A stretch of DNA of 38,965 bases from Folioceros fuciformis. Lineage: Eukaryota. The stretch is from positions 1-38,965 of the forward strand of contig JBNGIO010004078.1 of assembly GCA_049999805.1 (NCBI GenBank), written 5' to 3'. The notes below the pieces were generated by a model that was not told the origin of the DNA, searched no databases, and was given only the letters and a program-made list of their open reading frames with translations. This document shows positions 3,575 to 36,565 of the stretch, piece after piece (the first letter of the stretch is position 1; each line of letters opens with the position of its first letter). Both the position numbers and the translations under genes were made by a program.

Positions 3575-6500
3575 CTAGATTAGCGTAGGATGCTCTTTGA
3601 ACCCAACGAGAAAACTGTGAACCTGTCCGGCCATGTCTGTCCACCAGCTCCGACCTGGCTCCTTCCATGCCCTGATTCGTTTTCTCCTAGCCTGCATCTC
3701 CTGTGCCTGCTCCCACATTTGAGCATCGGTGTATATGTTCAACATCAACACATACGCTGCTGAATCTTTCTGGTCTAGTTTAACAGCTTCATGAAAAGCA
3801 CTGCATCCCACCTCCACGTTGCTCCACTTTCTGCACGCAGCCAAGAGCGTGTGCCAGACTGCAGCATTAGGCGGTATAGGCATGCTCCTTATCAAAGCTA
3901 GTGCTTCATCCAGTTGCCCTGAACGACCAAGGAGGTCCACCATGCATGTGTAGTGGTCCGCTGTTGGCTTGATGCCGTACTGTTTGCTCATTACCTCAAA
4001 GTACTCTCGCCCCTTATCCACTAGACCCGTGTGACTGCACACTGTCAGCACACTCAAGAACGTAATTCTGTCTGGCTGTATGCCATCCTCTCTCATTCTG
4101 ACAACCAAGTCGAAGACACTGTTGCAGTCCCCTTGACGGGTATATCCGCCAATGAGTGCATTCCAGGCAACGACATCTTTCTCAGGCAGTGCCTGAAACA
4201 CATGCTGCGCTTCCACCATGCTACTGCATTTTCCATACATGTCTATCAAACTGACCGCCACAAGCACATCAGCTTGAAGTCCCTGTTCTGTAATCTGTGC
4301 ATGAAGCTGCCTTCCCAGATGCAAAGCCGCCACACTGGCACATGCCTGGAGGAGGCACGCAAATGTCACACAGTTGGGTGCAACACTGCCTTCTTCTTCC
4401 ATAGCCCTGTACAGGCGAAGCGCGTCATGGCCCATGCCCTGCTGAGAATAGCCAGCTATCATGGCACTCCACATTGCTACATCCTTCTGAACAAGGCCAT
4501 CAAACATGCCCCGGGCTTCCTCTAGGCTGCCACACTTCGCATACATATTTATCAAACTGCTGACAATGAACACGTCAGTTTCCAGTCCTTGTTCTCTAAT
4601 TTGTGAATGAAGCTGACGCCCATTTTCCAAAGCCAGGGAGCCCACACTGGCACATGCCTGAAGAAGGGACAAAAATGTCCCGGAATTGGGTGCAGCCATC
4701 CTTTCGTTCCTCATGGCACTGAGAAGATGAAATGCTTTCAGTCCCAATCCCTTCCGGGAATATCCCGCTATCATCACATTCCATGTCACCACGTCTTTGT
4801 GAGGAAGTCTGTGAAACAGGGCCTCAGCATCATCCAGGCTGCCGCATTTCACGTACATGTTTACCAAACTGTTGGCTATGAACGAATCAGCCTGAAGCCC
4901 TCGTTCTCCTATCTGTGCATGCAACTGCTTCCCCCTCGTCAAAGCTGGGGTGCCCACACTTGCGCATGCCTGCAGGAGGGACACAAATGTCACAGAATCA
5001 GGTGCACGCATGCCTTCTTCTTGCATAGTTTTGTATAGATCCAGGGCTTCCTGCCCCATTCCCTGCTGGGAGTATGCCGCTATCATGGCATTCCACGTCA
5101 CCACATCTTTCCGATCAAGTTCATTAAACACACTCTCAGCATCCTCTAGGCTACCGCACTTTGCATACATGTTAACCAAACTGTTGGCTGCAAACTGATT
5201 CCCTTCAAGTCTGCCTTCTCTAATTTTTACATGGAGGTCCTTCCCATCCTTCAGAGCTGGGTTCCCCACAGTTGCACATGCATGGAGGAGGCACACAATC
5301 GTCACAGAATTGGGCGTCACAATGCCATCTCCTTGCATAGCCCTGTAAAGACTAAGGGCCTCCTGCCCCATGCCCAGCTGGGAGTAACCTGCTATCATGG
5401 CATTCCACGTCACTAAATTCTTCTCGCGAAGGTTATCGAAGACACCTTGAGCATCCTCTAGGCTCCCGCACTTTGCATACATGGTAACCAAACTGCTGAC
5501 AACAAAAGCATGAGATTGAAGTCCTTGTTCTCTTATTAGCCAATGTAGCTGCCTTCCCGTCTGCAAAGCCTGCGTGCCCACGCTTGCACATGCCTGCAGC
5601 AGGCACACAAATGTCACAGAATCAGGTGGAGCCATGCCATCGTCTTGCATTGCAGTAAAAAGACTAAGGGCTTCCTTACCCATGCCTTGCTGGGAATAGC
5701 CTGCTATCATGGCATTCCAGGTCACCACATCTTTCTGACGCACCCCGTCAAAGACCCTTTTGGCTTCTGCCAAACTGCCACACTTTGCATACATGTCCAC
5801 CAAGCAATTGCAGACAAACAAATCAGCCTCAAAACCAGTAGCCACGACATCAGAGTGCACCTGCTGCCCAGATTCCAAGTCGACTCCCATCGCACACGCC
5901 TGCAGAGCTGCTACAAACACATGGCTATTTGGTTTCACACCGGACCTGCGCATTTGACGATAAAGTTGCATGGCCTTCCTGTCCTGCCCCTGCTTTACAT
6001 GAGCAGAAATAATCGCAGACCAAGTGAAAACATCTGGCTTGGCTACCATACTGAACACATCCACAGCCTCTTGTAACCTGGAAAAAGAATTATACATCCG
6101 CAGGATATGATTGCACAAGAACGTATCCGACTCGTACCCCGTCGTCACGGAGAGAGAATGAACAAGGCGGCCAAGCCGCAAATCCTTGGTACCCACACAC
6201 TGTTTCAGAACAACATAAAACACGTGTTTGGAAATTTGACAACCTGTGTGAACCAGCAATCTCAGGACCTCCACGGCCCCGGCAAGCTGGCCCTGCTGAC
6301 ATATTCGCATCACACTACTTTCGTATCCGGCAGGCCTGCCAGGGTCTCCATCAGCCGGTACGCTTGAGTGGGAGGTCCAGTCTCTGCAAGACAGCTGCAC
6401 ATCCACAGCACCGATCTGCGCATCCGGCCCAACCCAACCATTGAATCTGTGTACCCTGAAGACCTGCTGCAATGAGTCCTTTTCCCTGAAGGCAGGAAAG

Positions 6501-6604
6501 TAAAAGCTCTTCTCATGCTGCGCATCACGGGGTCCACACGAATTTGTGGACACACGAGCTCCCGGCGACGACCCGCGCTGCAGGATCCGTCTCCATCCAG
6601 ACAT
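3575..6604 (-). CDS. PPR-1: PLS-class pentatricopeptide repeat protein (6 P1-L1-S1 triplets + P2-L2-S2, E1, E2, WW-type PG box, truncated DYW); putative organellar RNA-editing factor
   Basis: Intronless ORF; the track start at 6655 is TTG and the first in-frame ATG is at 6604. It has repeated DVVTWNAMIAGY / VTFV.LLQACA / SLV.MYAKCGSL motifs, HYTCMVDLLGR (S2), WHTLLAAC (E1) and AAYVLMLNIY (E2), and ends KEPGRSWWTD..VHSFLVG..*. Confidence 0.93.
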   Translation of the reverse strand: MSGWRRILQRGSSPGARVSTNSCGPRDAQHEKSFYFPAFREKDSLQQVFRVHRFNGWVGPDAQIGAVDVQLSCRDWTSHSSVPADGDPGRPAGYESSVMRICQQGQLAGAVEVLRLLVHTGCQISKHVFYVVLKQCVGTKDLRLGRLVHSLSVTTGYESDTFLCNHILRMYNSFSRLQEAVDVFSMVAKPDVFTWSAIISAHVKQGQDRKAMQLYRQMRRSGVKPNSHVFVAALQACAMGVDLESGQQVHSDVVATGFEADLFVCNCLVDMYAKCGSLAEAKRVFDGVRQKDVVTWNAMIAGYSQQGMGKEALSLFTAMQDDGMAPPDSVTFVCLLQACASVGTQALQTGRQLHWLIREQGLQSHAFVVSSLVTMYAKCGSLEDAQGVFDNLREKNLVTWNAMIAGYSQLGMGQEALSLYRAMQGDGIVTPNSVTIVCLLHACATVGNPALKDGKDLHVKIREGRLEGNQFAANSLVNMYAKCGSLEDAESVFNELDRKDVVTWNAMIAAYSQQGMGQEALDLYKTMQEEGMRAPDSVTFVSLLQACASVGTPALTRGKQLHAQIGERGLQADSFIANSLVNMYVKCGSLDDAEALFHRLPHKDVVTWNVMIAGYSRKGLGLKAFHLLSAMRNERMAAPNSGTFLSLLQACASVGSLALENGRQLHSQIREQGLETDVFIVSSLINMYAKCGSLEEARGMFDGLVQKDVAMWSAMIAGYSQQGMGHDALRLYRAMEEEGSVAPNCVTFACLLQACASVAALHLGRQLHAQITEQGLQADVLVAVSLIDMYGKCSSMVEAQHVFQALPEKDVVAWNALIGGYTRQGDCNSVFDLVVRMREDGIQPDRITFLSVLTVCSHTGLVDKGREYFEVMSKQYGIKPTADHYTCMVDLLGRSGQLDEALALIRSMPIPPNAAVWHTLLAACRKWSNVEVGCSAFHEAVKLDQKDSAAYVLMLNIYTDAQMWEQAQEMQARRKRIRAWKEPGRSWWTDMAGQVHSFLVGFKEHPTLI

Positions 6605-6960
6605 CCTCTTGGACGCGCTAAGCACCCTATCCTCAGAAAATGCGGCATTTCGCAAATTCCGACGGTTGATTCGTTTGGGTCATCTACATTCCCGACAGCC
6701 ATGGCTCGCACATAGTCTGCCACTCCGCATTCCTGAAATTCCGGTGGGAGTACCTTCCCCATCATCTCCACTCCGGCACTTGGGCAAGAGGAGAGAAGTC
6801 CTGAGTACCTCTAGGACCTTCATCTTCGGGGAGCCCTAGCCTGCATTCGCAACCGAGACCATCGAGGCCCACCGCGTAGCCAGAGCCGCTAGCTCCCAGA
6901 AAGCTTCCTCCCGGATGTTCCAGAAGAATACCCGATAAAGAGGGCAGCACGAATCAATTT

Positions 6961-9708
6961 TTAGGCTTTTGCCCCAACCAGAAACCCATGCACCCGTCCA
7001 TCCATGTCTGTCCACCAGCTCTGGCCCGGCTGCTTCCATGCCTTTATGCTCGTTCTCCTCGATTGCATCTCCAGTGCCTGCTCCCACATCTGGGCACCAG
7101 TGTATATGTTTGACATGAGCACATAGGCTGCAGCATCTTTCTTGTCAAGCGTCACTGCTTCATAGAAGGCATGGCATCCCACTTCCACATTATTCCACTT
7201 TTGGCAAGCGCCCAAGAGAGTGTGCCAAATTGCAGCATTGGGCTGTAGAGGCATTGTTCTCACGACATCTAGTGCTTCGTCCAGTTCTCCTGCACGACCC
7301 AGGAGATCCACCATGCATGTGTAGTGGTCCGCCGTGCGCGTGATGTTGTAATGGCTGCTCATGGACTCAAAGTGCTCTCGACCCTTGTCCACTAGACCCA
7401 TGTGACTGCACGCTGTCAGTACACTAAGGAACGTGACGCCGTCTGGCAGTATGCCATCCTCCATCATTCGGAAAAACAATCCAAAGACCACTTTAGAATC
7501 CCCTTGGCGGGTGTATCCTGCAATTAGTGCATTCCAGACGGCAACGTCTCGTTTGTGCAATGCTTGGAATACCTGCTGTGCATCAACCATACTACCGCAC
7601 TTCCCATACATGTTTATCAAACTGCCAGGTACAAGCCCATGGCCTTCAAGCCCTTGATCTTTGATTTGAGCATGAAGCTGCCTTCCCAGGTCCAAAGCTG
7701 CCAAATTTGCACATGCCTGAAGGAGGCACACAAATGTCAAGGAATTCGGTGGAACTAAGCCTTCTTCTTTCATAGTCCTGTAAAGACAAAGGGTGTCCTG
7801 ACCCATGCCCTCCTGGGAATATCCTGCTATCATGGCATTCCACGTCACCACATCTTTTCGGCCAAGGTTGTCGAACACCACCCGGGCATCCCTTAGACTC
7901 CCACACTTGGCGTACATGCTTACCAAGCTGCTGGCTACAAACACATCAGCCTGAAGTCCTAGCTCTCGAATCTGTGTATGAAGCTGCCTCCCTTTCTGCA
8001 AGGCCGGAGTACCCACACTTGCACAAGCCTGCAGAAGGGAAGCAAATGTCACAGAATTGGGTGCAGACATTCCTTCTTGTTGCATTGCACTGAGAAGAGA
8101 AAGGGCTTCCAGTCCCATGCCCTTCTGTGCATATCCTGCTATCATGGCATTCCACGTGACAACATCTTTCTGAGCAAGTCTGTCAAACATGCCCTGAGCA
8201 TCCTCTAGAGAACCACACTTTGCATACATGTTCACTAGACTGTTGGCTACCACCGCATTTGCTTCAAGTCTTTGCTCTCTAACTTGTGCATGAAGCTGCT
8301 TCCCCTTCTCCAAAGCTGGGATGCCCACAATTGCACATGCTTGCAAGAGGCACACAAAAGTCACAGAATTGGGTCTCACGACACCTTCTGCTTGCATGGC
8401 CTTGTAAAGAGCAAGGGCATCCTGCACCATACCCTCCTGGGAATATCCCGCTATCATGGCATTCCATGTAACCACATCTTTTTGAAGAAGACCATCAAAT
8501 AAGCCCCTAGCATCCTTGAGGGTGCCACACTTTGCATACATGTTCACCAAGCTGTTGGCTACAAACACGTCATCGTGAAGTCCTCGTTCTTTGATTTGTG
8601 CATAAAGGTGAGTTCCCTTCTCCAAAGCCCTGATTCCTAGACTTGCACATGCCTGCAGGAGGGAAACAAATGTCACAGAATCGGGTGCAACGATGCCCTC
8701 CTCTTGCATGGCACTATACAGACGAAGGGCTTCCTGACCCCTGTCCTGCTGGGCATACGCGGCTATCATGACATTCCAAGTCACCACATCTTTTTGAGCA
8801 AGCCCGTAAAACACACTCTGAGCATCGTCCAAGCTGCCACACTTTGCATACATGTCCACCAAGCTACTACAGACAAACAAGTCAGGCTCGGCATCAGTAA
8901 TCAACACGTCAGCATGCACCTGTTGTCCACATTCCAAGTCTCCTCCCCTCACACAAGCCTGAAGTGCAGCTACAAACACATGGCCATTTGGCTTCAGGCT
9001 CGTCTTGCGCATTCTATGATATAGCTGTCTGGCCTGCCTATCTTGCCCGTGTCTAACATGGGCAGAAATTATGGCAGCCCAAGTAAACGCATCTGGTTTG
9101 AGAACCATATCGAATGCATCCATAGCTTCCTGCAGCCTGGCATTATGAGCATACATTCGCAAGATATGGTTGCACAAAAACGTATTTGACTCGTATCTCT
9201 TCTTCACGGTGAGAGCATGAACACGGCGACCTAGAGACAGATCCCGCTTGGCTCCACATTCCTTCAGCACCATACAAATGAGAGCGGTTGACAGCTGACA
9301 GCCTGTTAAGGCAAGAACTCCCAGGGCTTCTACCGTTTCAGTGAGCTGCCCCTGCTGACACAGTTTCCTCACAGTTTCAGCATTTGGGCATTTCCAGTTG
9401 AATGCATGAACACCACCACCAATGGGATTGTTATGGCGGTCGGCCAGCGATCGGGTACCACTATGCTGCTGCCGGCTACCCCTATGAAGTCCACGGCTAG
9501 AAAAAAATCTTGGACTTGGTCGCTGGAGCACCCATCGCCCACAACACATCATCTGTCTCTTTGAGGCGTCGTCGAATGTTGGTTGTGGGTGACTGAAAGA
9601 GAAAATTACGTGCGAGTCTGTAGATTTGAAGCAGTCGTCCCGTGCCGGTTTCTGTTGATTGCCACACTGCCGCAGGCAGCTTTCACGGGCAAGGACGTTC
9701 CCTTCCAT
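6961..9708 (-). CDS. PPR-2: PLS-class PPR protein (5 P1-L1-S1 triplets + P2-L2-S2, E1, E2, WW-type PG box, truncated DYW)
   Basis: Intronless 915-aa ORF with the same PLS motifs, ending KQPGQSWWTDMDGRVHGFLVGAKA*. The true start may be the ATG at 9552, which gives an Arg/Ser-rich presequence-like N-terminus (MMCCGRWVLQRPSPRFFSSRGLHR). Confidence 0.93.
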   Translation of the reverse strand: MEGNVLARESCLRQCGNQQKPARDDCFKSTDSHVIFSFSHPQPTFDDASKRQMMCCGRWVLQRPSPRFFSSRGLHRGSRQQHSGTRSLADRHNNPIGGGVHAFNWKCPNAETVRKLCQQGQLTETVEALGVLALTGCQLSTALICMVLKECGAKRDLSLGRRVHALTVKKRYESNTFLCNHILRMYAHNARLQEAMDAFDMVLKPDAFTWAAIISAHVRHGQDRQARQLYHRMRKTSLKPNGHVFVAALQACVRGGDLECGQQVHADVLITDAEPDLFVCSSLVDMYAKCGSLDDAQSVFYGLAQKDVVTWNVMIAAYAQQDRGQEALRLYSAMQEEGIVAPDSVTFVSLLQACASLGIRALEKGTHLYAQIKERGLHDDVFVANSLVNMYAKCGTLKDARGLFDGLLQKDVVTWNAMIAGYSQEGMVQDALALYKAMQAEGVVRPNSVTFVCLLQACAIVGIPALEKGKQLHAQVREQRLEANAVVANSLVNMYAKCGSLEDAQGMFDRLAQKDVVTWNAMIAGYAQKGMGLEALSLLSAMQQEGMSAPNSVTFASLLQACASVGTPALQKGRQLHTQIRELGLQADVFVASSLVSMYAKCGSLRDARVVFDNLGRKDVVTWNAMIAGYSQEGMGQDTLCLYRTMKEEGLVPPNSLTFVCLLQACANLAALDLGRQLHAQIKDQGLEGHGLVPGSLINMYGKCGSMVDAQQVFQALHKRDVAVWNALIAGYTRQGDSKVVFGLFFRMMEDGILPDGVTFLSVLTACSHMGLVDKGREHFESMSSHYNITRTADHYTCMVDLLGRAGELDEALDVVRTMPLQPNAAIWHTLLGACQKWNNVEVGCHAFYEAVTLDKKDAAAYVLMSNIYTGAQMWEQALEMQSRRTSIKAWKQPGQSWWTDMDGRVHGFLVGAKA

Positions 9709-9781
9709 TTATCGAGGTGGGTCTCCACGATAACTGGCCCATTGTTGAGTGGCCACCGACGATCTGCCATGGGATCCTCAC

Positions 9782-12700
9782 TCAGTCACGTTGCCCTACT
9801 CCCCCTTCCCCGGGAGCGAGCTGTTGCAACTTTGCCCCACTCCCGGGACGCGGCTCCGCCCCAACCAGAAAGCCATGGACTAGTCCGTCCATATCTGTCC
9901 ACCAGCTCTGGCCCGGCCTCTTCCATGCTCTGATTTCCTGTCTCTTTAGCTGCATCTCATGTGCCTGTTCCCACATCTGGGCACCGGTATATATGTTGAA
10001 CATCAACACATACGCGGCGGCATCTTTCTTGTCCAGCTTCACTGCCTCATCAAAGGCATGCCGGCCCACTGGCACATTCCCCCACTTCTGACAAGCAGCC
10101 AGTAGAGTGCGCCAAACAGCAGAGTCAGGCAGGACGGGCATCGTCCTCACTAAAGCTAGTGCCTCGTCCAAAAGACCTGCACGACCCAGGAGATCCACCA
10201 TACAGGTGTAGTGGTCTACTTTGGGAGTGATTCCGTAGTGGTCACTCATGTCCTCGAACAAGTCTTGGCCCTTTTTCACGAGGCCAGTATGACTGCACAC
10301 TGTTAGTAGACTAAGGAATGTGATTCCATCTAGCTGTGTGCCATCCTCTTTCATGCGATCAACTAAGTCAAAAAGCTCTTCTTGGTCTCCTTGACGGCTG
10401 TATCCAGCAATCAGTGCACTCCAGGCAACAATGTCTCTTTCCGGTAATTCCTCAAACACCTGCCGTGCGTCCACCATGCTACCGCATTTTGCGTACATGT
10501 TTATCAAACTGCCGGCTACAAGCGCATCAGCTTCGAGACCTTGTCCTTTGATCTGGGCATGCAGCTCCCTTCCGAGATGCAAAGCCGCGGAACTTGCACA
10601 TGCCTGCAGGAGACACACATATGTTACAGAATTGGGTGCAACACAGCCTGCTTCCTGCATAGCCCTGTAGATATGAAGCGCTTCCTCCCCCATGCCCTGA
10701 CGGGTATAGCCTGCTATCATGGCATTCAACGCCATCGCATCTTTCTTACCGAGTCCGTCAAAAACATCTCGAGCATCCTCTAAGCTGCCAGACTTTGCGT
10801 ACATGTTGATCAGACTGCTGGTCACAAACACGTCAGCCTGAAGACCTCGCTCTTTGATGTGCGCATGAATTTGCCTCCCCTTTTCCAAAGCCGCGTTGCC
10901 CACTATGGCACACGCTTGCAGAAGGGACACAAATGTTACTGAGTCGGGTGCTGCCATGCCTTCTTCTTGCATCGCACTGAGAAGCACAAGGGCTTCGGAT
11001 ACCATGCCCTCCTGGGAATATGCTGATATCATGGCATTCCATGTTACCACATCTTTCTGGGTAAGCTGATCAAAGACGCCCTGAGCATCGACTAGGCTGC
11101 CGCACTTTGCATACATGTTCACCAAGCTGTTGGCAACAAATACATCAGCCTGAAGATTTCGTTCTCCAACTTGTGCATGGAGCTGCTTTCCTTTTTCCAA
11201 GGCTGTGGTGCCCAGATTTGCACACGCCCGCAAGAGGGAGGCAAAAGTTACAGCATCTGGTGCAGCCATACCTTCTTCTTGCATGCATGTGTAAAGAGAA
11301 AGGGCTTCATGCCCCATGCCCTGCTGTGAATATGCTGCTATCATGGCATTCCACGTTACAACATCTTTTCTATCAAGTCCGTCAAACACATTCCGCGCAT
11401 CGTTCAGCACACCACACTTTGCATACATGTTCACTAAGCTCCCACCCACAACTACCTGAGCCTGAACCCCTTGTATCCTTATCTGTGCATGTAGCTGCTT
11501 CCCCGTCTCTAAACCCCGGGTGCCTACACTTGCACATGCCTGTAGAAGGCACACAAATGTCACAGAATCGGGAGCAGCCGTGCCTTTGTCTTGCATAGCT
11601 TCGTAAAGACCAAGGGCTTCCTGCCCCATGTCATTACAGCAATATCCTGCAATCATTGCATTCCACGTCACCACATCCTTCTGAGACAGTCCCTCAAACA
11701 CAGCTCGTGCGTCCTCTAGGCTGCCGCACTTTGCATACATGTTTACCAAGCTATTGGCAACAGATAAGTTTGCCTGCAATCCTTCTCCTACAAGATGTGC
11801 ATGAAGCTGCTTTCCCCGTTCCAAAGCACGGACACCCAACCTTGCACATGCATTCAGAAGGCACACAAATGTTACAGCATCGGGCACAAATCCTTCTTGT
11901 TGCATACACCCGTAGAGATGAAGAGCTTCCTCCCCCATTCCCTGTTGGCAATATCCTGCTATCAGTGCACTCCAAGTCACCAGAGTTCTTTTACCTAGTC
12001 CGTCAAACACTGCTTGAGCATGTTCTACACTGCCGCACTTTGCGTACATGTTCACCAAGCTGTTGGCTACGAACACATCCGATTGTAGACCGTTTTCTCT
12101 AATTTGTGCGTGAAGCTGCTTCCCGCTCTCCAAAGCTGGGGCGCCCAGAAGTGCACATGCCTGCAATACGGACACAAATGTCACACTGTCAGGTGCAGTC
12201 ATTCCGTCTTCTTGCATGGCCCTGTAAAGACCAAGGGCTTCTTGGCCCATGTTCTGCTGGAAGTATCCTGCAATCATCGCATTCCACGTCACCACATCTT
12301 TCTGAGCCAGTCCTTCAAACACACCCTGCGCAGCCTCGAGGTCGCCACACTTTGCATACATGTTTACCAAACTGTTGGCCGCAAACACATTCACTTGAAG
12401 TCCTCGCTCACTAATTAGCGCATGGAGCTCTTTCCCTTTCTCCAAAGCAGAGGGGCCAACACCAGCACATGCCTGCAGAAGGGCCACAAATGTAACGGAA
12501 TCAGGTACAGCCATGTCATCTTGCATAGACCTATAAAGAACAAGTGCTTCCTGCCCCATGCCCTGCTGAGCATATCCTACTATCATTGCATTCCATGTAA
12601 CCACATTCTTTTCAACTAATCCATCAAACATGCTCCGAGCCTCCTCTACGCTGCCACACTTTGCATACATGTTTATCAAGCTGCTTGCCACATAGACATC

Positions 12701-13921
12701 AGCTTGAAGTCCCAGTTCTCTCATCTGTTCGTGAAGCTGCCTCCCCATCCTTAGTGCTGAGGTTCCCACACTCGCACATGCCTGCAGGAGGCACAAGAAC
12801 GTCACCGAATTGGGGCCCACTATGCCTTCTTCTTGCATAGCACCATAGAGACGAAAGGCTTCCTGACCTTTATGGTGCTGCGAATATCCTGCTATCATGG
12901 CATTCCATATTACTACATCCTTGTCAAGAAGCCCATCAAACACTCTTCGAGCATCTTCCAGGCTGCCACATTTTGCATACATGTCCACCAAGCAACTAGA
13001 TACAAACAAATCAGCCTGAAACCCACTAGCCAACACCTCAGCATGCACCTGTAGCCCAGACTTCAAGTCTGCTCCCCTAGCACAAGCCTGAAGAGCTGCT
13101 ACAAACACATGCCCAGTTGGCTTGACACCTGACCTGCGCATTTGCTGATACAGTTGTACGGCTTGCTTATCTTGACCATGTTTGACATTCGCAGAAATTA
13201 TAGCAGACCAGGTGAAGACATCTGGTTGCGCAACCATGCTGAAAACGTCCATTGCTTCTTGCAACCTGGCGTTGGAAGCATACATCCGCAAGATGTAATT
13301 GCACATGAACGTGTCCGACTCAAAGCCCTTCTTAACCACCAGGGCATGAACACGGCGACCAAGAGGCAGATCCTTTTTAGCCACACATTCTCTTAAGACA
13401 ATATGAAATAAAGGCTTGTAAGTATCACAATCCGTGTGCACCAGAACTCCCAGAACCTCAACGGCCTCATCGAGCTGCCCCTGATTGCACAGTTTCCTCA
13501 CTGTTTCAGCCGTTACACCTAGTCCGTATCCTGCAGACCTGATAGAGACAGCACCATTTGGCACTCCCCAGGTAGTTGTAGGAGCATGACGTTCCATCTG
13601 GACATCCAGAGCAGCCAGCTGCGAATCCACCCAGGCTGGCTTGTGGATGTCGTTTAGCCACAGGACATCCTGGGAATCCCTTTGCCGGAAATCAGGGGAA
13701 TGAGAACTTTTCTTATGTTGCCTGATATCCCACCAAAGTGATGGGTCCAGAAAAAATGCTCGCCACAAGAGCTCCTGCTCCCTGGAGGGGCCATGGCATC
13801 CTGTTGGACGGGCTGGGCTGCCTGCCAGAGTGCTGTATCTTGTGGCTTCATTGTTGGTCAACGGTTGGTTCCTGGCTCGTGCTAAAATACCTGTTAACCT
13901 CCAGACAGCCATGGCTTGCAT
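9782..13921 (-). CDS. PPR-3: PLS-class PPR protein with an N-terminal OSB-type PDF motif (9 P1-L1-S1 triplets + P2-L2-S2, E1, E2, WW-type PG box, truncated DYW)
   Basis: Intronless ORF of about 1379 aa; the track start at 13927 is GTG, with ATGs at 13921 and 13912. A presequence-like N-terminus is followed by LWRAFFLDPSLWWDIRQHKK..SPDFRQRDSQDVLWL..PAWV, then about 32 PPR motifs, ending KRPGQSWWTD..VHGFLVG...*. Confidence 0.94.
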   Translation of the reverse strand: MQAMAVWRLTGILARARNQPLTNNEATRYSTLAGSPARPTGCHGPSREQELLWRAFFLDPSLWWDIRQHKKSSHSPDFRQRDSQDVLWLNDIHKPAWVDSQLAALDVQMERHAPTTTWGVPNGAVSIRSAGYGLGVTAETVRKLCNQGQLDEAVEVLGVLVHTDCDTYKPLFHIVLRECVAKKDLPLGRRVHALVVKKGFESDTFMCNYILRMYASNARLQEAMDVFSMVAQPDVFTWSAIISANVKHGQDKQAVQLYQQMRRSGVKPTGHVFVAALQACARGADLKSGLQVHAEVLASGFQADLFVSSCLVDMYAKCGSLEDARRVFDGLLDKDVVIWNAMIAGYSQHHKGQEAFRLYGAMQEEGIVGPNSVTFLCLLQACASVGTSALRMGRQLHEQMRELGLQADVYVASSLINMYAKCGSVEEARSMFDGLVEKNVVTWNAMIVGYAQQGMGQEALVLYRSMQDDMAVPDSVTFVALLQACAGVGPSALEKGKELHALISERGLQVNVFAANSLVNMYAKCGDLEAAQGVFEGLAQKDVVTWNAMIAGYFQQNMGQEALGLYRAMQEDGMTAPDSVTFVSVLQACALLGAPALESGKQLHAQIRENGLQSDVFVANSLVNMYAKCGSVEHAQAVFDGLGKRTLVTWSALIAGYCQQGMGEEALHLYGCMQQEGFVPDAVTFVCLLNACARLGVRALERGKQLHAHLVGEGLQANLSVANSLVNMYAKCGSLEDARAVFEGLSQKDVVTWNAMIAGYCCNDMGQEALGLYEAMQDKGTAAPDSVTFVCLLQACASVGTRGLETGKQLHAQIRIQGVQAQVVVGGSLVNMYAKCGVLNDARNVFDGLDRKDVVTWNAMIAAYSQQGMGHEALSLYTCMQEEGMAAPDAVTFASLLRACANLGTTALEKGKQLHAQVGERNLQADVFVANSLVNMYAKCGSLVDAQGVFDQLTQKDVVTWNAMISAYSQEGMVSEALVLLSAMQEEGMAAPDSVTFVSLLQACAIVGNAALEKGRQIHAHIKERGLQADVFVTSSLINMYAKSGSLEDARDVFDGLGKKDAMALNAMIAGYTRQGMGEEALHIYRAMQEAGCVAPNSVTYVCLLQACASSAALHLGRELHAQIKGQGLEADALVAGSLINMYAKCGSMVDARQVFEELPERDIVAWSALIAGYSRQGDQEELFDLVDRMKEDGTQLDGITFLSLLTVCSHTGLVKKGQDLFEDMSDHYGITPKVDHYTCMVDLLGRAGLLDEALALVRTMPVLPDSAVWRTLLAACQKWGNVPVGRHAFDEAVKLDKKDAAAYVLMFNIYTGAQMWEQAHEMQLKRQEIRAWKRPGQSWWTDMDGLVHGFLVGAEPRPGSGAKLQQLAPGEGGVGQRD
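13616..13774 (-). other. PDF motif (as in plant organellar ssDNA-binding OSB proteins) encoded within PPR-3
   Basis: ELLWRAFFLDPSLWWDIRQHKKSSHSPDFRQRDSQDVLWLNDIHKPAWVDSQL fits the recalled OSB PDF consensus W..ff..P..WWD.R..K.....PDFK.Kd....LWL....P.Wv...L. Confidence 0.85.
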
Positions 13922-14802
13922 GAGCACACACGAGCTTATGGATGTAAGGGGCTAGCAACAGGATCAAGGCAAGTGCTTGACATGCCAAGAGATCATGCCA
14001 CCCTGTAGACATCGGAATGCAATAGTAGGCATGAGAAAATCATTCACCTGTACAAGATGTACAGGCTCAAGTGCATAGCAAATTGTGAAGATTCAAGTAC
14101 TTCGGCCTGGTCAGTCCATGACCAGAGCGTCATCATTTGAGGATGATGGAAACCTTCTAGAGTCAGCAAACAGTGGAGCCGTAGATACGTACTTGGAAAG
14201 ACGCTCATGCTATGGATGCCCAACGAGTTGTGCAGCAATACGGCCATGCCAGCCATCGAAGGATTGGGTGGCGCAGCCGAGTAAACCACGTTAGAAGCGG
14301 AGTTGGGCACGAGACGAACTCCATCGAATGGCACCAGGCACTTGCCCAGTTCCTGTAATATTAGGTGTGGCATAAGTCGGGCTCGTGTACTTGTGCGACA
14401 TGGAAATGCTTGCAAGGGATTGCAGCAACTGCCAGCAACGAATTGGTACTTGTTGCATCCATCGTGGCGGGACGATCTTCCGAGAGCCATGGCTGTCAAG
14501 TTCTGAGGCTAACACGTATACAGCTGATTGCCGTCCCAGGTTCCATAGTGAACTCTGTGGGAAAGAGTCGCTAGCATGGGTGCCTGTAGAGACGGCATGC
14601 TCTTGATTGTAGGCAAGGTGTGCCTTTCTGTTTCATAGGTGACTCGCATACTGTGTATATGCAGATCCTCGAATTCAATCGACAGTGGGCGCGAATACTG
14701 AGCTTCCCAAGTAGCGTGCGGGCATGACGAGTCCAAGGAGATCGTTCTGCTGAGAAACTTGTAGAAGCGTGCTCATGTGGATTGGGTGACCCAGATGTGC
14801 CG

Positions 14803-17100
14803 ATGGATTGTCGTCTTAATACATCAAATTACGTGCTGGATGGTCGTTACCATGGCAGACCTGGAGGATATGAAGAAGGCATAACGGCTGGAATCGTGAC
14901 CACTCTTTGTCAGCGGGGCCAGCTCTCAGAGGCCGTTTATGCTCTGGGCCTTCTGGTGCAAACAGACTGTCACGCTTCCATCTCTCTCTTTTATATGCTC
15001 GTAAAAGAATGTGTGGCAAAGATGGATCTGTTTCTGGGTCGTCGTGTTCATGCTCTCGCTGTGAAGAAGGGGTATATGTCGGATACTTTTTTGTGCAACC
15101 ACATTCTGCGAATGTATTCTGCCCATGCCAGGTTGCAAGAAGCGGTGGACGTGTTCACTCTGGTTGCCAAACCAGATGCCTATACGTGGGCTGCCATTAT
15201 TTCTGCACATGTTAAACAGGGACAAGATAAGCAGGCCATACATCTGTATCATAGGATGCGGAGTTCCAGTGTGAAGCCGAACTGCTATGTGTTTGTAGCC
15301 GCCCTTCAGGCTTGTGCGAAAGCTGCTGTCCTGAAAGCTGGGCAGCAGGTGCATGCTGACTTGTTGGCTAGTTGCGTGGAGCCTGATTTGTTTGTGCGTA
15401 GTTCCTTGGTGGGCATGTATGCAAAGTGTGGCAGTTTGGAAGACGCGCATAGAGTGTTTGACGAGCTTCCCGAGAAAGATGTAGTGACTTGGAATGCAAT
15501 GATATCTGGATATTCCCAGCAGGGGATGGGTCAGGAAGCCCTCGGTCTTTACATGGCTATGCAGGCGGAAGGTATGACTGCACCGGATTCTGTGACATTC
15601 GTGTCCCTCCTGCAGGCATGTGCAAGTCTGGGAGCCCCAGGTTTGGAGAAGGGGAAGGAGCTTCATGCACAGATCGCCAAACAAGGATTTCAGACTGATG
15701 TGTTTGTGGCCTGCAGTTTGCTCAACATGTATGCAAAGTGCGGCAGCCTAGAGGATGCCCAGGGTGTGTTTGACGGACTTGATCACAAGTACTTGGCGGC
15801 GTGGAATGCCATGATCTCAGGATATTCTCAACAGGGCATGGGGCAGGAGGCTCTTCGTCTTTATAGGGCCATGCAAGAAGAAGGCGTGGTTGCACCCAAT
15901 TCAGTGACATTCGTGTGCCTCCTTCAGGCATGTGCATGTGTGGGAGCTTTGCATCTAGGGAGGGAGCTGCATACACAGATTACAGAACAGGGGCTTCAAG
16001 CTCACCTGCTCGTAGCTGGTAGCTTGATAAACATGTACGCTAAGTGCGGTAGCATGATTGATGCGCAGCAGGTGTTTGAGGGATTGCCTGAAAGAGACGG
16101 TGCCGCCTGGAATGCACTTATTGCAGGCTACACCCGTCTAGGAGACAGTGAAGCGGTCTTCGGCCTGGTTCTCAGGATGAGAGCGGAGGGCATCAAGGCA
16201 GATGGCATCACATTCCTCAGTGCCCTAACAGTTTGTAGTCATACAGGCCTAGTGAGCAGGGGGCGAGAGTACTTTGAGGTCATGAGAACAAGCCATGGCA
16301 TCGAGCCCACAGCTGACCATTATGCATGCATAGTGGACCTCCTGGGTCGTGCAGGACAGTTGGACGAGGCGTTAGGTGTAGCAAAGGCCATGCCCGTGCC
16401 TCCTAATGCTTCAGTTTGGCACACTCTATTAGCGGCTTGTCGAAAGTGGAGCAATGTGGAGATCGGACGCCATGCTTTTGATGAAGCAGTGAAGCTGGAT
16501 GAGAAAGACGCTGCAGCTTATGTCTTGATGTTGAACATATACACCGGTGCCCGCATGTGGGATCAGGCGCGGGAGATGCAGGCCAGGAGAAAAAGAAATA
16601 GGGCATGGAAGGAGCCGGGCCAGACCTGGTGGACAGACAAGGACGGGCTTGTGCATCGTTTTCTCGTTGGCCATAGGAATCATCCCAGGAGCCACGGAAG
16701 GCTGGACAAAAGTTTTACCAAATCCTTCTGGAAAGAAGGATTTGTGCCACATCTCAACGGGGCATCTGACGATGGAAAGGAATCTTCTTCTTGTGGTGAG
16801 AGCGGGAAGCAGGATATCGTTCATGGCCTAAACAACGCATCCGAGAGTGCCCGCCGTGTGCACAGTGTGAAATTTTTGCGCGTCTGCGGGAATTCTTCCA
16901 CTGCCACAGCCTACATATCCAGAGTAGTGAAGCGAATTAGTGAAGCTCGCTGTCTACCACTTGTAGGAGGAGGAGAGATCGTATGGTTGCAGGCTTTGAA
17001 AACCCCTTTGAAAAGTGTGATGAGGCTACCTTCCGTTATTGCATTTCGTTCAAGCCATTCGAGAGCAAAATCATGTCCTCTGCAGCAGCCTCGCTGGTGA
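14803..17100 (+). CDS. PPR-4: PLS-class PPR protein (3 P1-L1-S1 triplets + P2-L2-S2, E1, E2) with a near-full-length but catalytically degenerate DYW:WW domain
   Basis: Intronless ORF; the track start at 14782 is TTG and the first ATG is at 14803. The C-terminus runs PGQTWWTD..VHRFLVG..HP..KEGFVPHL..CGESGK..LRVCGNSSTAT..ISRVVKRI. The HxE motif reads ESG, the CxxC motif reads CGNS, and there is no terminal DYW. Confidence 0.9.
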   Translation: MDCRLNTSNYVLDGRYHGRPGGYEEGITAGIVTTLCQRGQLSEAVYALGLLVQTDCHASISLFYMLVKECVAKMDLFLGRRVHALAVKKGYMSDTFLCNHILRMYSAHARLQEAVDVFTLVAKPDAYTWAAIISAHVKQGQDKQAIHLYHRMRSSSVKPNCYVFVAALQACAKAAVLKAGQQVHADLLASCVEPDLFVRSSLVGMYAKCGSLEDAHRVFDELPEKDVVTWNAMISGYSQQGMGQEALGLYMAMQAEGMTAPDSVTFVSLLQACASLGAPGLEKGKELHAQIAKQGFQTDVFVACSLLNMYAKCGSLEDAQGVFDGLDHKYLAAWNAMISGYSQQGMGQEALRLYRAMQEEGVVAPNSVTFVCLLQACACVGALHLGRELHTQITEQGLQAHLLVAGSLINMYAKCGSMIDAQQVFEGLPERDGAAWNALIAGYTRLGDSEAVFGLVLRMRAEGIKADGITFLSALTVCSHTGLVSRGREYFEVMRTSHGIEPTADHYACIVDLLGRAGQLDEALGVAKAMPVPPNASVWHTLLAACRKWSNVEIGRHAFDEAVKLDEKDAAAYVLMLNIYTGARMWDQAREMQARRKRNRAWKEPGQTWWTDKDGLVHRFLVGHRNHPRSHGRLDKSFTKSFWKEGFVPHLNGASDDGKESSSCGESGKQDIVHGLNNASESARRVHSVKFLRVCGNSSTATAYISRVVKRISEARCLPLVGGGEIVWLQALKTPLKSVMRLPSVIAFRSSHSRAKSCPLQQPRW

Positions 17101-24320: not shown

Positions 24321-25330
24321 TTTTTTTTTTCCCTCCGTTTTCACTTTCACCTGCTTGATATTCATGCCCAGTGAGGTAAGGATTGGTAAGCAGGTGTTTT
24401 CGTATTGGACTTTGTATCATATTTGGTGCACATGTGACATATCGTAACAGTTACCCAAGGTCGACTGAAATCCAGCACATTTATCAGTTATCGTGTCTTG
24501 AAAAAAGACAGAACAGGTTGTTGCACTAACAAAGAGCGCCAAGTTGAAACTATCTAGCGAGGGATGGAGGGGAAGTTCTCGGTGCTCTACAAGATTGGCT
24601 TGACAAGATTTGTGAAGTAACATTTCCGTGTTTCTGCGATGACGAAGACATTCCTGAACAAGTCTCACGCAAACAACGGAACAAAAAAAAAGAATCAATC
24701 GCGATCTGTCCGAATCGTCGATAAAGCTTTTGAGCAGTTTTCAACACGCAGCCAAACGGACGACGATTTGGGACAGCCCAAAGATAAACGTTGCTGACAA
24801 GTTTCTTCCAAACTACGCGCTACACATTCGTAAACAGTCGGACCAACAGTGATGGTAACATTAGAACGGATCCCTACATATCAAAGCTATAATCAGGCGT
24901 AGTACAGCAGCCGCATAAAATATTCCTCGGAGGGAAATATTTCAAGTAATCTTGCACCTCCGGCCATTCAGCCAAAGCTATGAAGGACAAAGGATGCGAT
25001 TGCAGCTGTGCGCTACTTACCAGAGCGGGAAAAAAAAACACCCACCATCGCACTGCAGACATTTGCAGGTGCAAACTTGCTGACACTACCAAGCTGGTAC
25101 CTCGCCTTTCATGGTTCACCTCAAAGATTTGCAATACCCCCACCCCTCCTCCTCCTCTGTTACTGTTACAACCGAGGGCAAGCTGCAACCCAGAGCAAGC
25201 TGCAACCCATCTGATTGCTCTGGCTTCCACGACCTGAGAGCAGAAGGTGAGGTTGCGGTAGGAGCAGTAGCCCTGCTTAAGGAGTGTCCAAGAACCCGAT
25301 AACTACCATTCGATCCGTGCTCCTCCCCTG

Positions 25331-26422
25331 CTACGCCGTGACGCCATCCGGGTGCACTAGAGCGGATATGGACAACTTCTTGCTCACAGACTGGGCGTCC
25401 GCAGGCCTACGGAACTTCCACCTCGACACCCAAGACAAGTTCACCGCCGACTGCAGATTAGCGGCACTGGAATCAGGAGCGGCAGCAGCCCTCCCACTCC
25501 TGCTGCTCAAGATCCCGCTCCTGTTTGAAACATCCTCTCCCGACGTCGATTTCCGGCCAGCTCCCCTCACCGGCGAGTCAGTTGAAGTCCTCCTCCTCTC
25601 CCCCGCCGCGCCTGCCATCATCCAGGAGGCAGTCCCATTGGCATTCGACCTCTTCACTCCCCGGACTCCCGCACTTTCAGAAACTCCACCCTCCACAGCA
25701 CCGGTATCGAAACCTCTAGACCTCCCCGACTTGGACTTGCCGAAATGTCCACTCAACGAGCTCTTGAAATCAGAGCGCGCACAGTATTGATGCACGACCT
25801 CCACTGTCGAGAACCTCCGGCTGCCTTCCCCACTCGCACTCCCCCTGTCCGAGAAGGAATTCCGGGCGCTGGTAGTGCCCACCTCGGAGCCGGCCCCGCT
25901 CTTGTTCTCCTTCCTGGTGCCCACCCTCGGAAGCCCCTCCTTCAGCGCCGAAAGAGGTGCGGAAGCCCTGTGCTGCTTAGCCGCCCACACCACCTTCACA
26001 GGCCCTGCCGAGGCCGCCTGCCCCGGCGCTTTCTTGCTCCTCCCAGCCTTATTGTCCCCGGCCCCCGGACTGACAGCCTCCGGGCTCTCCCCCCCCCGCG
26101 AGCTGGCCTGCTCCGCGGCCGCCAGCCTCGTCAAACACACCGTCAAGCAAAGGGGACATACCCCCACCAGGACCCCCGCCTCCGGATGCTTCCGACACCT
26201 GGACGCCATGAAGTCCTCGTCGTCAGAGCTGTCTGCGTCCGACTGCTCCCCGTTGCTCCGGTACTCCTTCAAACTAGCAATCGCTCGCCTGATTTCAAAC
26301 AAGGAATCCTCATCAGATTGGTGCCTGCTGGCATCATACGCGGCATTCACGATCGCTTTTATGACGAACGTGGAGATGGACTTAAGCTTGATCCTCTTCC
26401 ACGTCAAGCTTCCTAGCGCCAT
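25331..26422 (-). CDS. DUF740/OCTOPUS-like protein, 363 aa, single exon
   Basis: ATG-to-TAG ORF containing CRKHP...VGVCPLCL..CLTRL, which matches the C.kHP...GvC..CL.erL motif, followed by a Ser/Gly/Arg-rich low-complexity tail. Confidence 0.68.
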   Translation of the reverse strand: MALGSLTWKRIKLKSISTFVIKAIVNAAYDASRHQSDEDSLFEIRRAIASLKEYRSNGEQSDADSSDDEDFMASRCRKHPEAGVLVGVCPLCLTVCLTRLAAAEQASSRGGESPEAVSPGAGDNKAGRSKKAPGQAASAGPVKVVWAAKQHRASAPLSALKEGLPRVGTRKENKSGAGSEVGTTSARNSFSDRGSASGEGSRRFSTVEVVHQYCARSDFKSSLSGHFGKSKSGRSRGFDTGAVEGGVSESAGVRGVKRSNANGTASWMMAGAAGERRRTSTDSPVRGAGRKSTSGEDVSNRSGILSSRSGRAAAAPDSSAANLQSAVNLSWVSRWKFRRPADAQSVSKKLSISALVHPDGVTA

Positions 26423-36263: not shown

Positions 36264-36554
36264 TGAAGGATCGCTAGAGGAGCATGGTGAAGGAGAGGAG
36301 AGGAGGAGGCAAGAAGGAGAGGAGAAAGAGAGGTCACACTCTCACAATAGAGTCTCAATAGCAAGGGAGCTCAAGGAGGTATTTATACCCTCTAGAAGAG
36401 CTCCCTAGGAAACTTCACAAGAAGCGCACATGAAGTTGCGCAAGAAGCTTCCTACATATTAGCTTAAGCTAATCTAAACTAATGATACTTAACTAAACAC
36501 TAATCTAAGACTAAACACATTAGTATAAGCACATTGGGCTTTATTAACCCTACA
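36264..36554 (-). repeat. 3' LTR of Copia-2 (about 291 bp)
   Basis: On minus it begins TGTAGG (36554) directly after the PPT and ends CCTTCA (36264). The termini are TG...CA with a 5/6 inverted repeat, and Copia-1 RT homology stops here. Confidence 0.8.
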
Positions 36555-36565
36555 ACCTCCCACTT
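36555..36565 (-). promoter_or_regulatory. Polypurine tract of Copia-2
   Basis: AAGTGGGAGGT on minus, immediately before the LTR's TG and about 30 bp after the pol stop at 36597. Confidence 0.75.

Follow-up and report, generated by a model that had tools for sequence, protein, structure and literature searches.

Gene organization of the locus

The window (the whole stretch of Folioceros fuciformis DNA that was analysed, 38,965 nucleotides) contains an intact nuclear gene (Table 1). Its product is a PPR protein of the PLS class and E type that bears a single bona fide PDF domain. The gene is a single unbroken ORF in the raw DNA, in which the PDF and the PPRs are encoded together, and belongs to a tandem family. 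The ORF extends over 9782..13927 on the minus strand, comprising 1381 codons when counted from a GTG. Its first ATG lies at 13921 and an alternative second ATG at 13912, in a sequence context (CCATGGCTGTC) which is also kept in a tandem paralogue, and the stop codon occupies 9782-9784. The ORF ends 39 residues past the E motif, with the next gene 74 bp further. A preliminary description of this stretch had reported an ORF at 9782..13921 in which a PDF motif sits between a targeting peptide and a PLS-E PPR array. This ORF is indeed present on the minus strand, 13921 being its first ATG, and the PDF does lie between a presequence-like N-terminus and the array without interruption of the reading frame. 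The 47 residues that had been quoted as the motif recur verbatim as residues 54-100 of the protein (P0001; 13628-13768), and only the span given for them, 13616-13774, requires correction, being 6-12 nt off at each end.

Table 1. Features of the PDF-PPR gene and of the PDF relic in its tandem paralogue; residue numbers are those of P0001
Feature	Position	Strand	Basis or remark
Whole CDS, PDF-PPR gene	9782..13921	-	no intron needed; intronless
Presequence-like N-terminus, residues 3-47	13787..13921	-	composition; presumed organelle targeting peptide
PDF domain, residues 48-112, one copy	13592..13786	-	OSB-only profile, signature columns, AlphaFold
Linker from PDF to PPR array, residues 113-139 (~27 residues)	13511..13591	-	low pLDDT, low identity
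PLS-class PPR array, residues 140-1258, 11 P-L-S triplets, 33 motifs	10154..13510	-	Pfam and triplet profile
E motif, residues 1284-1342	9902..10078	-	PF20431
Short non-DYW C-terminal tail and stop codon	9782..9901	-	no PF14432 match
Decayed PDF relic in tandem paralogue (ORF 3575-6655)	6395..6562	-	BLASTP and DNA alignment

Residues 3-52 contain 6 R+K, 3 D+E, 8 S+T and 7 A, with the first acidic residue at position 25, and the N-terminus is presumed to be an organelle targeting peptide.

Homology of the PDF domain to OSB motifs

Pfam detected no family at E ≤ 1 in the N-terminal 150 residues, the ESM Atlas gave no usable match for residues 45-115, and word-indexed protein searches returned nothing for residues 1-150 (against proteins of near lengths) or 41-115 (against shorter proteins). 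The empty word-indexed searches are attributed to the limits of the word index, since an exhaustive phmmer comparison of residues 41-115 to a set of 1.84 billion representative proteins then gave 452 matches at E ≤ 1e-3, of which 92 reached E ≤ 1e-10 and 12 also E ≤ 1e-30. Among the best 150 of these 452 matches, an SSB domain was recognised by Pfam in 40, and in 39 of the 40 the PDF copies lie C-terminal to it. A profile was built exclusively from such OSB-like proteins (56 PDF segments from 40 SSB-domain proteins) and used to scan the window, which has 795 stop-to-stop frames. The PDF-PPR ORF scored 75.1 bits (E 1.2e-22) and the runner-up frame 6.4 bits (E 0.34), with no extra PDF copy in the 795 frames at E < 0.3. 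The preliminary description had called the motif OSB-type, to be abandoned if no significant HMM match was found; the strength of this profile match upholds the assignment, as does the alignment to a protein named 'protein OSB3, chloroplastic/mitochondrial' by NCBI (P0055), all three PDF copies of which align with the window PDF (E 3e-12, 2e-08 and 2e-07). A Diphasiastrum SSB-domain protein with a single PDF shares 54% identity with it (E 4e-20).

Sixteen columns are at least 80% conserved in both 29 PPR-linked and 84 SSB-linked PDFs, forming the signature W, P, W-D-R, K, P-D-F, K, L-W, P-W-V, L. The window PDF is identical at 15 of these 16 columns, the remaining one being a K-to-R substitution. 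Compared with six PDF-PPR relatives, the PDF shows 41-57% identity, whereas the linker shows 0-22% and the presequence 0-23%; against the distant relatives P0006, P0062 and P0070, the PDF (48%) is also more similar than the PPRs (29-34%). At the level of sequence, the PDF core is conserved while its flanks drift. Taken as a whole, the window protein almost certainly joins a genuine homologue of the PDF to a PPR array.

Predicted structure of the PDF domain

AlphaFold predicts the PDF core with pLDDT 90-95 as a helix, two or three short strands and a second helix, the fold being the same when the PDF is modelled alone (pLDDT 85.6) and in a 290-residue model. In the latter, residues 115-130 of the linker fall below pLDDT 50, and the sequence following the PDF and the linker is modelled as PPR helices. 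The models thus depict the PDF as a compact α/β module that is flexibly tethered. A sequence search of solved structures gave a best E of 1.2, to chlorophyll-binding proteins. Foldseek against the PDB returned no match at E ≤ 1e-3 (best E 4.6), and the highest Z from VIA-align, run against 48,161 chains, was 3.1 (0 chains reached Z ≥ 5). Neither the sequence search nor the structure searches of solved structures revealed an OSB or PDF structure. The lack of a match to solved nucleic-acid-binding folds counts against a role of the PDF as an ssDNA anchor. A prediction of a two-copy PDF complex, in which no alignment was used, scored 0.01 against a mark of 0.32, a result that bears on dimerisation in neither direction.

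PPR array and E motif

Pfam annotation of the whole protein is dominated by PPR families (PPR_2, 1.6e-162; PPR, 9.4e-134; plus related families). When the protein's 102-aa P-L-S unit is itself used as a profile, residues 147-1258 resolve into 11 triplets of about 101-104 aa, and therefore into 33 PPR motifs, close to the roughly 32 repeats counted in the preliminary description. The E motif (PF20431) scores 35.9 bits, above the cut-off of 27.3, whereas the DYW domain (PF14432) is matched neither in the whole protein at E ≤ 1 nor in the last 80 residues at E ≤ 10. The triplets and the C-terminal E motif place the protein in the PLS class and the E subclass, and outside the DYW subclass. The protein had previously been called a PLS-PPR editing factor; the PLS array and the E motif agree with that name, but no DYW deaminase accompanies them, and the editing role is for that reason read from the E motif only. 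We infer that the protein is an editing-type specificity factor.

Recurrence in mosses, lycophytes and ferns

In the PDF-PPR architecture, a single polypeptide carries a presequence, one to three copies of the PDF and a PPR array, in that order. Among the best 150 of the 452 motif matches, 17 are PLS-positive by a purpose-built profile (13 by Pfam), and in all 17 the first PDF copy starts within residues 1-100; a PDF is also present in 11 of 120 PPR homologues. The named sources of PDF-PPRs are Sphagnum, Diphasiastrum, Selaginella, Adiantum, Ceratopteris and Pteridium, and the Selaginella protein (P0150) bears the RefSeq label 'At3g09040-like'. The presequence-PDF order, with 45-95 residues before the motif, occurs in Sphagnum, Diphasiastrum and ferns. 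Three PDF copies precede the PPRs in P0006, and two each in P0036 and P0104. A DYW domain is present in other PDF-PPRs, according to Pfam in P0064 and P0089 and according to precomputed Pfam annotation in P0194, P0198, P0268, P0277 and P0288. In P0062, an ORF from a fern transcriptome, PDF and PPRs share one reading frame, indicating that the PDF is not spliced out in this fern. For seed plants, the motif was found in 0 of 57 named rows, a biased sample. Some of the motif matches may stem from the merging of gene models, examples being a kinesin of 1526 aa (P0081) and an 'ICR2' protein of 1063 aa (P0027).

The search for PDF and PLS co-occurrence that the preliminary description had called for is therefore positive in mosses, lycophytes and ferns. 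Judged by sequence, the presequence-PDF-PLS PPR is a recurrent architecture in these three groups, unnamed in databases, and the PPR-linked PDFs may have one single origin. The statement that this is not the canonical PLS architecture agrees with the available part of a review (PMC9459714), in whose list of PPR accessory domains (RRM, LAGLIDADG, SMR, NYN, CBS, SAP) the PDF does not appear; however, the arrangement is no one-off. No paper linking the PDF with PPRs was found in the literature searched, in which the combination seems to be undescribed.

Loss of the PDF in a tandem paralogue

A tandem paralogue (ORF 3575-6655) retains 1026 codons despite decay of its PDF. BLASTP homology between the two proteins begins inside the PDF (query residue 70 versus subject residue 46), and in the DNA alignment 13 bp are deleted at the S-L-W-W codons, PDF is changed to PAF and LW to VF. 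The relic is seen only by BLASTP and DNA alignment; the PDF profile does not detect it at E ≤ 10. It is a picture of neutral decay over the same time span. Two further paralogues are without the PDF motif. Since one paralogue's PDF has decayed and two others are without it, the PDF is dispensable for at least some family members, which counts against the nucleoid-anchor reading proposed below.

Comparison with known systems

OSB1 controls organelle recombination, and the OB-folds of OSB proteins are poorly conserved. The window protein shares with the OSB family a PDF with the same 16-column signature, an N-terminal presequence and the presence of one or several motif copies. We also note differences between them. 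First, OSBs possess an SSB-like OB-fold followed by C-terminal PDFs, whereas the window protein has an N-terminal PDF followed by 33 PPR motifs. Second, Pfam detects no SSB domain (PF00436) in the window protein at E ≤ 1, and there is no space for an OB-fold because PPR helices follow the PDF. Third, the process in which OSBs act is the recombination of organellar DNA, whereas in the window protein the domain that accompanies the PDF reads RNA. Classification of the window protein as an OSB was consequently rejected, as it carries the PDF without the N-terminal SSB/OB domain.

In common with PLS-class E/E+/DYW PPR editing factors, the window protein is composed of P-L-S triplets with an E motif, and its gene is intronless and part of a tandem family; in contrast to them, the protein adds a folded N-terminal domain, and it has no DYW domain, although some other PDF-PPRs do. 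A different parallel is provided by PPR4 (RRM), PPR-SMR proteins, PRORP (NYN) and OTP51 (LAGLIDADG), in which the PPR tract supplies specificity and an added module another activity; the RRM of PPR4 is likewise N-terminal, as stated in the accessible text of PMC9459714. However, these are P-class proteins with Pfam-recognised domains, whereas the window protein is PLS-class and its module has no Pfam model, which is probably why architecture surveys miss the PDF-PPRs.

With respect to ligand and location, the ssDNA-binding property of the PDF is taken from the accessible parts of papers that cite one Arabidopsis study, and preferential binding is known from them only for Arabidopsis OSBs. A PLS-DYW editing factor has been described, in the available part of PMC7689822, as co-localising with plastid nucleoids, and RNA processing is thought there to start co-transcriptionally. 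The PDF motif itself is regarded as a hallmark of DNA-recombination surveillance proteins. Its original description is reportedly that of Zaegel et al. 2006.

Proposed function and alternatives

PPR proteins bind RNA with a defined polarity, their N-terminal repeats lying on the RNA 5′ side. The explanation that we tentatively consider best overall, at close to an even chance, is that the PDF-PLS-E PPR protein is an RNA reader with a PDF that anchors it to ssDNA at the nucleoid. The PPR array would read ~33 nt of organellar RNA, with the N-terminal repeats at the 5′ side, the E motif would make the protein an editing-type specificity factor with the deaminase supplied in trans, and the PDF would hang on its flexible ~27-residue linker at the 5′ end of the RNA footprint. 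By analogy with what has been reported for the OSB1 PDF motif, the PDF may bind ssDNA non-specifically, and such binding would hold the factor at the nucleoid (at a transcription bubble, an R-loop, or replication or recombination ssDNA), where it would meet its RNA target during RNA synthesis. The PDF is rather probably a functional accessory nucleic-acid-binding module of some kind; the analogy to OSBs makes an ssDNA/nucleoid anchor specifically possible, somewhat below an even chance.

The PDF could instead bind RNA and clamp the transcript non-specifically immediately 5′ of the PPR footprint, where it would assist a very long PPR array by raising affinity or on-rate or by melting local structure. 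This is unlikely, but the PDF is fused to an RNA binder, its tethered N-terminal position corresponds to the RNA 5′ side, and the multiple PDF copies in P0006, P0036 and P0104 are as expected if copies add avidity. However, OSB1 and OSB2 have been reported to favour ssDNA over dsDNA and RNA (available part of PMC4166229), and the PPR-linked PDFs are unshifted at the 16 signature columns, giving no hint of a ligand change.

The AtOSB2 protein has been reported to be tetrameric in the accessible part of PMC6963530, E-type PPRs without DYW need partners, and a small domain with two predicted helices could make an interface, all of which would suit a protein-protein module, serving for example in oligomerisation or in recruiting OSBs, the deaminase or editosome partners, with no nucleic-acid role here. 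We consider such a module improbable, given that the AtOSB1 PDF motif alone has been reported as sufficient for ssDNA binding (same part of PMC6963530) and that most of the invariant positions hold aromatic or basic residues (W, F, R, K), among them the Trp, Arg and Lys of profile columns W13, W23, R27, K30, W48 and W56, a composition suggesting base stacking and phosphate contacts.

It is more doubtful still, and very improbable, that the PDF is a functionless evolutionary leftover or is removed with the transit peptide. The motif does begin only ~45 residues after the start codon, and the decay in the tandem paralogue and the absence from two further paralogues point the same way, but 15 of the 16 signature residues are intact though the flanks have drifted, the presequence-PDF order is kept in Sphagnum, Diphasiastrum and ferns, and the decayed paralogue displays what neutrality has produced over the same period. 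Chance resemblance, ruled out by the 452 phmmer matches and the OSB-only profile E-value, and an artefact of gene prediction or assembly, conceivable for P0081 and P0027 but for which testing of the window gene gave nothing and which the raw-DNA ORF, the fern transcriptome ORF and the recurrence in several independent genomes rule out, have practically no likelihood left.

Implications

The usual picture of a PPR editing factor is that of an array which reads RNA, supplied with a targeting peptide and with E/DYW domains, and the PDF is usually seen in OSBs. The occurrence of the PDF in PPR proteins portrays it as a mobile module, and surveys that are based on Pfam or require an OB-fold, such as a 2026 OSB survey (PMC13393729, as far as its accessible text goes), would miss the PDF-PPRs. 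A small natural add-on domain which alters targeting or affinity could also serve engineered PPR editors. The conserved fusion of PDF and PPR in multiple lineages offers a natural experiment for locating site recognition within the organelle. A bolder proposal, for which the chances are rather slim, is that the PDF-PPRs are an ancient land-plant class physically coupling the sequence-specific reading of a nascent organellar transcript to the ssDNA from which it arises, at transcription bubbles or R-loops. If this coupling is true, editing or processing at their sites would be obligatorily co-transcriptional; alternatively, these proteins would stabilise or resolve R-loops in a sequence-addressed manner, and might thereby influence recombination, the process in which OSB1 itself acts.

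The PDF-PPR gene and its protein

The PDF-PPR gene is a single unbroken minus-strand open reading frame (ORF) of 1381 codons, read from 13927 to 9782, and its protein is referred to here as P0001. The first ATG of this ORF, at 13921, is the end coordinate adopted in the preliminary description, and a second ATG at 13912 lies within the context CCATGGCTGTC, which is conserved in a tandem paralogue, suggesting that ATG 13912 may be the true start. Residues 1–50, counted from the ATG, include 6 R+K, 3 D+E, 8 S+T and 7 A, with the first acidic residue at position 25, and, judged by composition alone, the N-terminus looks like an organellar presequence. The 47-residue string singled out in the preliminary description occurs verbatim at residues 54–100 (13628–13768), although the coordinates assigned to it were 6–12 nt too wide.

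The Pfam families of P0001 are PPR and the E motif only, the latter (PF20431) at residues 1284–1342 with 35.9 bits vs. a cut-off of 27.3; the Pfam scan detected no DYW domain in P0001 and no family in residues 1–150. A profile made from the 102-residue P-L-S unit of P0001 itself delineates 11 P-L-S triplets, i.e., 33 PPR motifs, at residues 147–1258, so the earlier count of roughly 32 repeats was a fair estimate.

Homology to the PDF motif of OSB proteins

Word-indexed protein searches with the N-terminal motif of P0001 gave no match. An exhaustive phmmer search with residues 41–115 against 1.84 billion representative proteins returned 452 matches at E ≤ 1e-3, of which 92 reach E ≤ 1e-10 and 12 reach E ≤ 1e-30. 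A Pfam scan of the best 150 of the 452 found the SSB domain (PF00436) in 40 (26 among 80 scanned at E ≤ 1e-3, 14 among 70 scanned at E ≤ 1e-5). Of the 40, 39 have every motif copy (1–4) C-terminal to the SSB domain, the sole exception being P0003, an unusual model of 1160 residues that has 13 copies. The 39 proteins thus have the published OSB architecture, in which an SSB-like OB-fold precedes one or several PDF motifs of 50 residues (PMC6963530, PMC4166229). Among the database names are "protein OSB3, chloroplastic/mitochondrial" (P0055, Canna indica) and "Single-stranded DNA-binding protein" (P0068, Parasponia and Trema). The P0001 motif is 35–38% identical to the three copies of the OSB3 protein (E 3e-12, 2e-08 and 2e-07) and 54% identical to the only PDF of an SSB-domain protein from Diphasiastrum (E 4e-20).

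The preliminary description had claimed an OSB-type PDF motif and proposed a profile comparison, which was run here with database OSB-type PDFs: 56 segments, all from the 40 SSB-domain proteins, each with a per-segment E < 0.01 scaled to the 1.84-billion library. Among the 795 stop-to-stop frames of the window, the P0001 ORF scored 75.1 bits (E 1.2e-22) and the runner-up 6.4 bits, with a profile that leans towards P0001 in that its segments were collected with the P0001 query. Sixteen columns reach a conservation of 80% or more in both 84 SSB-linked and 29 PPR-linked PDFs, i.e., those sharing a polypeptide with the respective domain (W13, P20, W23, D25, R27, K30, P36, D37, F38, K41, L47, W48, P54, W56, V57 and L61), and the P0001 PDF is identical in 15 of them, the remaining one being K41R. 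With the profile, the OSB3 alignments and the signature columns in agreement, the initial observation stands and the homology of the P0001 segment to OSB PDF motifs is confirmed. Judged by the 16-column signature, the binding surface of the PPR-linked PDFs gives no sign of change.

The PDF also occurs in other settings. The top-scoring matches (P0002, P0004, P0007 and P0012) contain 9–11 tandem PDF copies without an SSB or PPR domain; P0002 and seven members of its cluster belong to Effrenium voratum, a dinoflagellate, and lie on contigs as long as 978 kb. PDF copies are also present in a kinesin-motor protein model of Coptis chinensis (P0081, 1526 aa) and, together with an SSB domain, in a Striga hermonthica protein named "Interactor of constitutive active ROPs 2" (P0027, 1063 aa); instead of real fusions, both may be artefacts of gene-model merging.

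A recurrent architecture distinct from OSB proteins

While P0001 shares the PDF with OSB proteins, Pfam found no SSB domain in it at E ≤ 1; lacking this defining feature of the family, P0001 is, on its domain content, not an OSB protein. Among the best 150 of the 452 motif matches, 13 are PPR proteins by Pfam and 17 are positive with the PLS-triplet profile at E ≤ 1e-5, the Pfam PPR match of P0073 being weak only. In all 17 PLS-positive matches, none of which has an SSB domain, the first PDF copy begins within the first 100 residues and is followed by PPRs. Several short fragments in the alignment of PDF matches also run on, by eye only, into PPR-like sequence. P0006, a PLS-E PPR protein of 1371 aa and thus almost equal in length to P0001, has three N-terminal PDF copies (26–91, 136–206 and 219–288), and P0036 and P0104 have two each; with three copies in P0006, PDF copy number is variable in PPR proteins as well as in OSBs. 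The named PDF-PPR proteins are annotated throughout as hypothetical or PPR proteins.

PDF-PPR proteins by species
Species	Proteins
Sphagnum species	P0089 (with DYW domain); P0136 cluster of 39 members
Diphasiastrum complanatum	P0104; 6 of 8 Diphasiastrum rows among homologues of residues 1–320
Selaginella moellendorffii	P0150 (RefSeq label "At3g09040-like")
Adiantum capillus-veneris	P0070, P0036
Ceratopteris richardii	P0135
Pteridium aquilinum	P0062 (transcriptome ORF)

The motif is present in 11 of the 120 PPR homologues found with residues 1–320 of P0001 and in 0 of their 57 seed-plant rows (hand count), in a set biased by choosing candidates through words shared with the PDF-containing query. 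Given this bias and the coverage of the best 150 of 452 motif matches, the apparent absence of PDF-PPR proteins from seed plants is a lead.

A first PDF tree (199 segments), poorly resolved with only 63 columns, placed the P0001 PDF in a 13-row group (SH-aLRT 94) of 12 PPR-linked PDFs, fern proteins included, and one 162-residue fragment. A second tree was restricted to 30 PPR-linked and 72 SSB-linked PDFs, leaving out P0003 and rows of unknown architecture; here the PPR label requires 4 changes vs. a shuffled mean of 26.1, and none of 500 shuffles needed so few. When the PPR-linked PDFs were all constrained to a single clade, the likelihood rose above that of the free quick search (+22 lnL, p-AU 0.80), and a single fusion is thus not rejected. 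A single ancient fusion may therefore lie behind the PPR-linked PDFs, though it is not established by a short alignment and a group named only after the first tree was seen.

A full-text literature search, with subscription journals mostly outside its coverage, found no paper connecting PDF with PPR; the only paper found to contain both "PDF motif" and "pentatricopeptide" has them in unrelated sections (PMC6963530). A 2026 survey of 182 OSB genes required both PDF and OB-fold for inclusion, and "PPR" and "pentatricopeptide" do not appear in its main text (PMC13393729). The PDF is not on the list of additional domains (RRM, LAGLIDADG, SMR, NYN, CBS and SAP) in an overview of the Physcomitrium PPR proteins (PMC9459714). 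The novelty lies in the combination: the PDF itself is a known domain, so far unlisted among the accessory domains of PPR proteins, and an earlier mention is possible.

Tandem paralogues and decay of the motif

The window contains four paralogous intronless PLS-E PPR genes with 55–63% mutual identity, spanning 3575–17100, and 74 bp separate the PDF-PPR stop (9782) from the first ATG of the adjoining ORF (9708).

Features of the window
Feature	Position	Strand	Remarks
PLS-E paralogue, 1026 codons	3575–6655	-	tandem
Decayed PDF relic in 1026-codon paralogue	6395–6562	-	inside ORF 3575–6655
PLS-E paralogue	6961–9708	-	tandem
PDF-PPR gene (P0001)	9782–13927	-	tandem
PLS-E paralogue, 772 codons	14782–17100	+	divergent
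Degenerate DYW-like sequence	16591–17097	+	tail of 772-codon paralogue, beyond E motif
Long overlapping ORFs	25000–28100	both	G+C 0.59–0.61 vs. ~0.50 elsewhere
Ty1/copia-type retrotransposon pieces	33444–37904	both	Pol_BBD, gag_pre-integrs, rve, SH3_retrovirus, RVT_2

In the 1026-codon paralogue, homology to the PDF-PPR gene starts within the motif. The DNA alignment shows a 13-bp deletion across the S-L-W-W codons as well as the replacements PDF to PAF and LW to VF; the ancestral start context CCATGGCTGTC is recognisable upstream, now out of frame, and the N-terminus has been rebuilt from a new in-frame ATG further down. This relic, which the PDF profile did not report in its scan of the window frames, indicates that the ancestor of at least these two genes had a PDF.

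Between P0001 and six PDF-PPR relatives, identity is 41–57% in the PDF, 0–23% in the presequence and 0–22% in the linker. Against the distant P0006, P0062 and P0070, the PDF is 48% identical vs. 29–34% over the initial 190 residues of PPR sequence, a contrast that speaks for retention of the module by selection. The Sphagnum layout matches that of P0001, with ~46 residues, the PDF at 47–105 and then PPRs.

The DYW-like tail of the 772-codon paralogue scores 21 bits with PF14432 (E 2.9e-4), under the 24-bit cut-off, and by eye its catalytic signatures (HxE and CxxCH) are not intact. Each of the remaining three paralogues ends at a point of its own, within 40 residues of the E motif. The long ORFs at 25000–28100 match no Pfam family at E ≤ 1e-5.

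Predicted structure

An AlphaFold2 model of residues 41–125 (29-row alignment; pLDDT 85.6, pTM 0.66) has a helix at 9–20, short strands at 25–27, 40–42 and 48–49, and a helix at 58–74. A second model, of residues 41–330 (24 rows; mean pLDDT 89.9), returns the same PDF fold, followed by a stretch with pLDDT < 50 at protein residues 115–130 and regular PPR helix pairs from ~140, so that, as modelled, the PDF forms a module of its own, flexibly tethered to the array. Solved structures gave no sequence resemblance to the P0001 PDF, and a Foldseek search of them with the PDF model gave no match (best E 4.6). VIA-align against 48,161 chains reached a best Z of 3.1; such weak or missing matches are not proof of a new fold.

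Proposed function

A PPR array binds RNA in parallel, with its N-terminal repeats on the 5′ side, and E-type PPR proteins that lack a DYW domain depend on a deaminase acting in trans. In general terms, the PDF of P0001 is probably a functional accessory nucleic-acid binder. More specifically, our best reading, held tentatively, is that it serves as a single-stranded-DNA anchor, which combines the domain order, homology, conservation and tethered build shown above with this PPR background and with published reports: OSB1 and OSB2 prefer ssDNA over dsDNA and RNA (PMC4166229), OSB1 reduces R-loop levels at mitochondrial repeats (PMC8330923), and in rice a PLS-DYW editing factor is found together with plastid nucleoids, RNA processing being thought to start co-transcriptionally (PMC7689822). 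The earlier suggestion that the protein could link a transcript to ssDNA, or tether editing co-transcriptionally, appears plausible.

That the PDF is an RNA clamp 5′ of the PPR footprint, on the side of the N-terminal repeats, seems unlikely beside the ssDNA preference of the OSB proteins. A role as a protein-contact module is more doubtful still. Slightly less probable again is an evolutionary leftover, or removal of the PDF along with the presequence. The 1026-codon paralogue bears on this in both directions: having kept its PPR ORF while its PDF decayed, it shows that some family members can do without the module, and its relic equally shows that the intact P0001 motif is not simply too young for decay.

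As an ssDNA anchor, the PDF would bind non-specifically and hold P0001, as a very long PPR protein whose search is slow, close to the nucleoid, where this protein could capture its site on nascent RNA.
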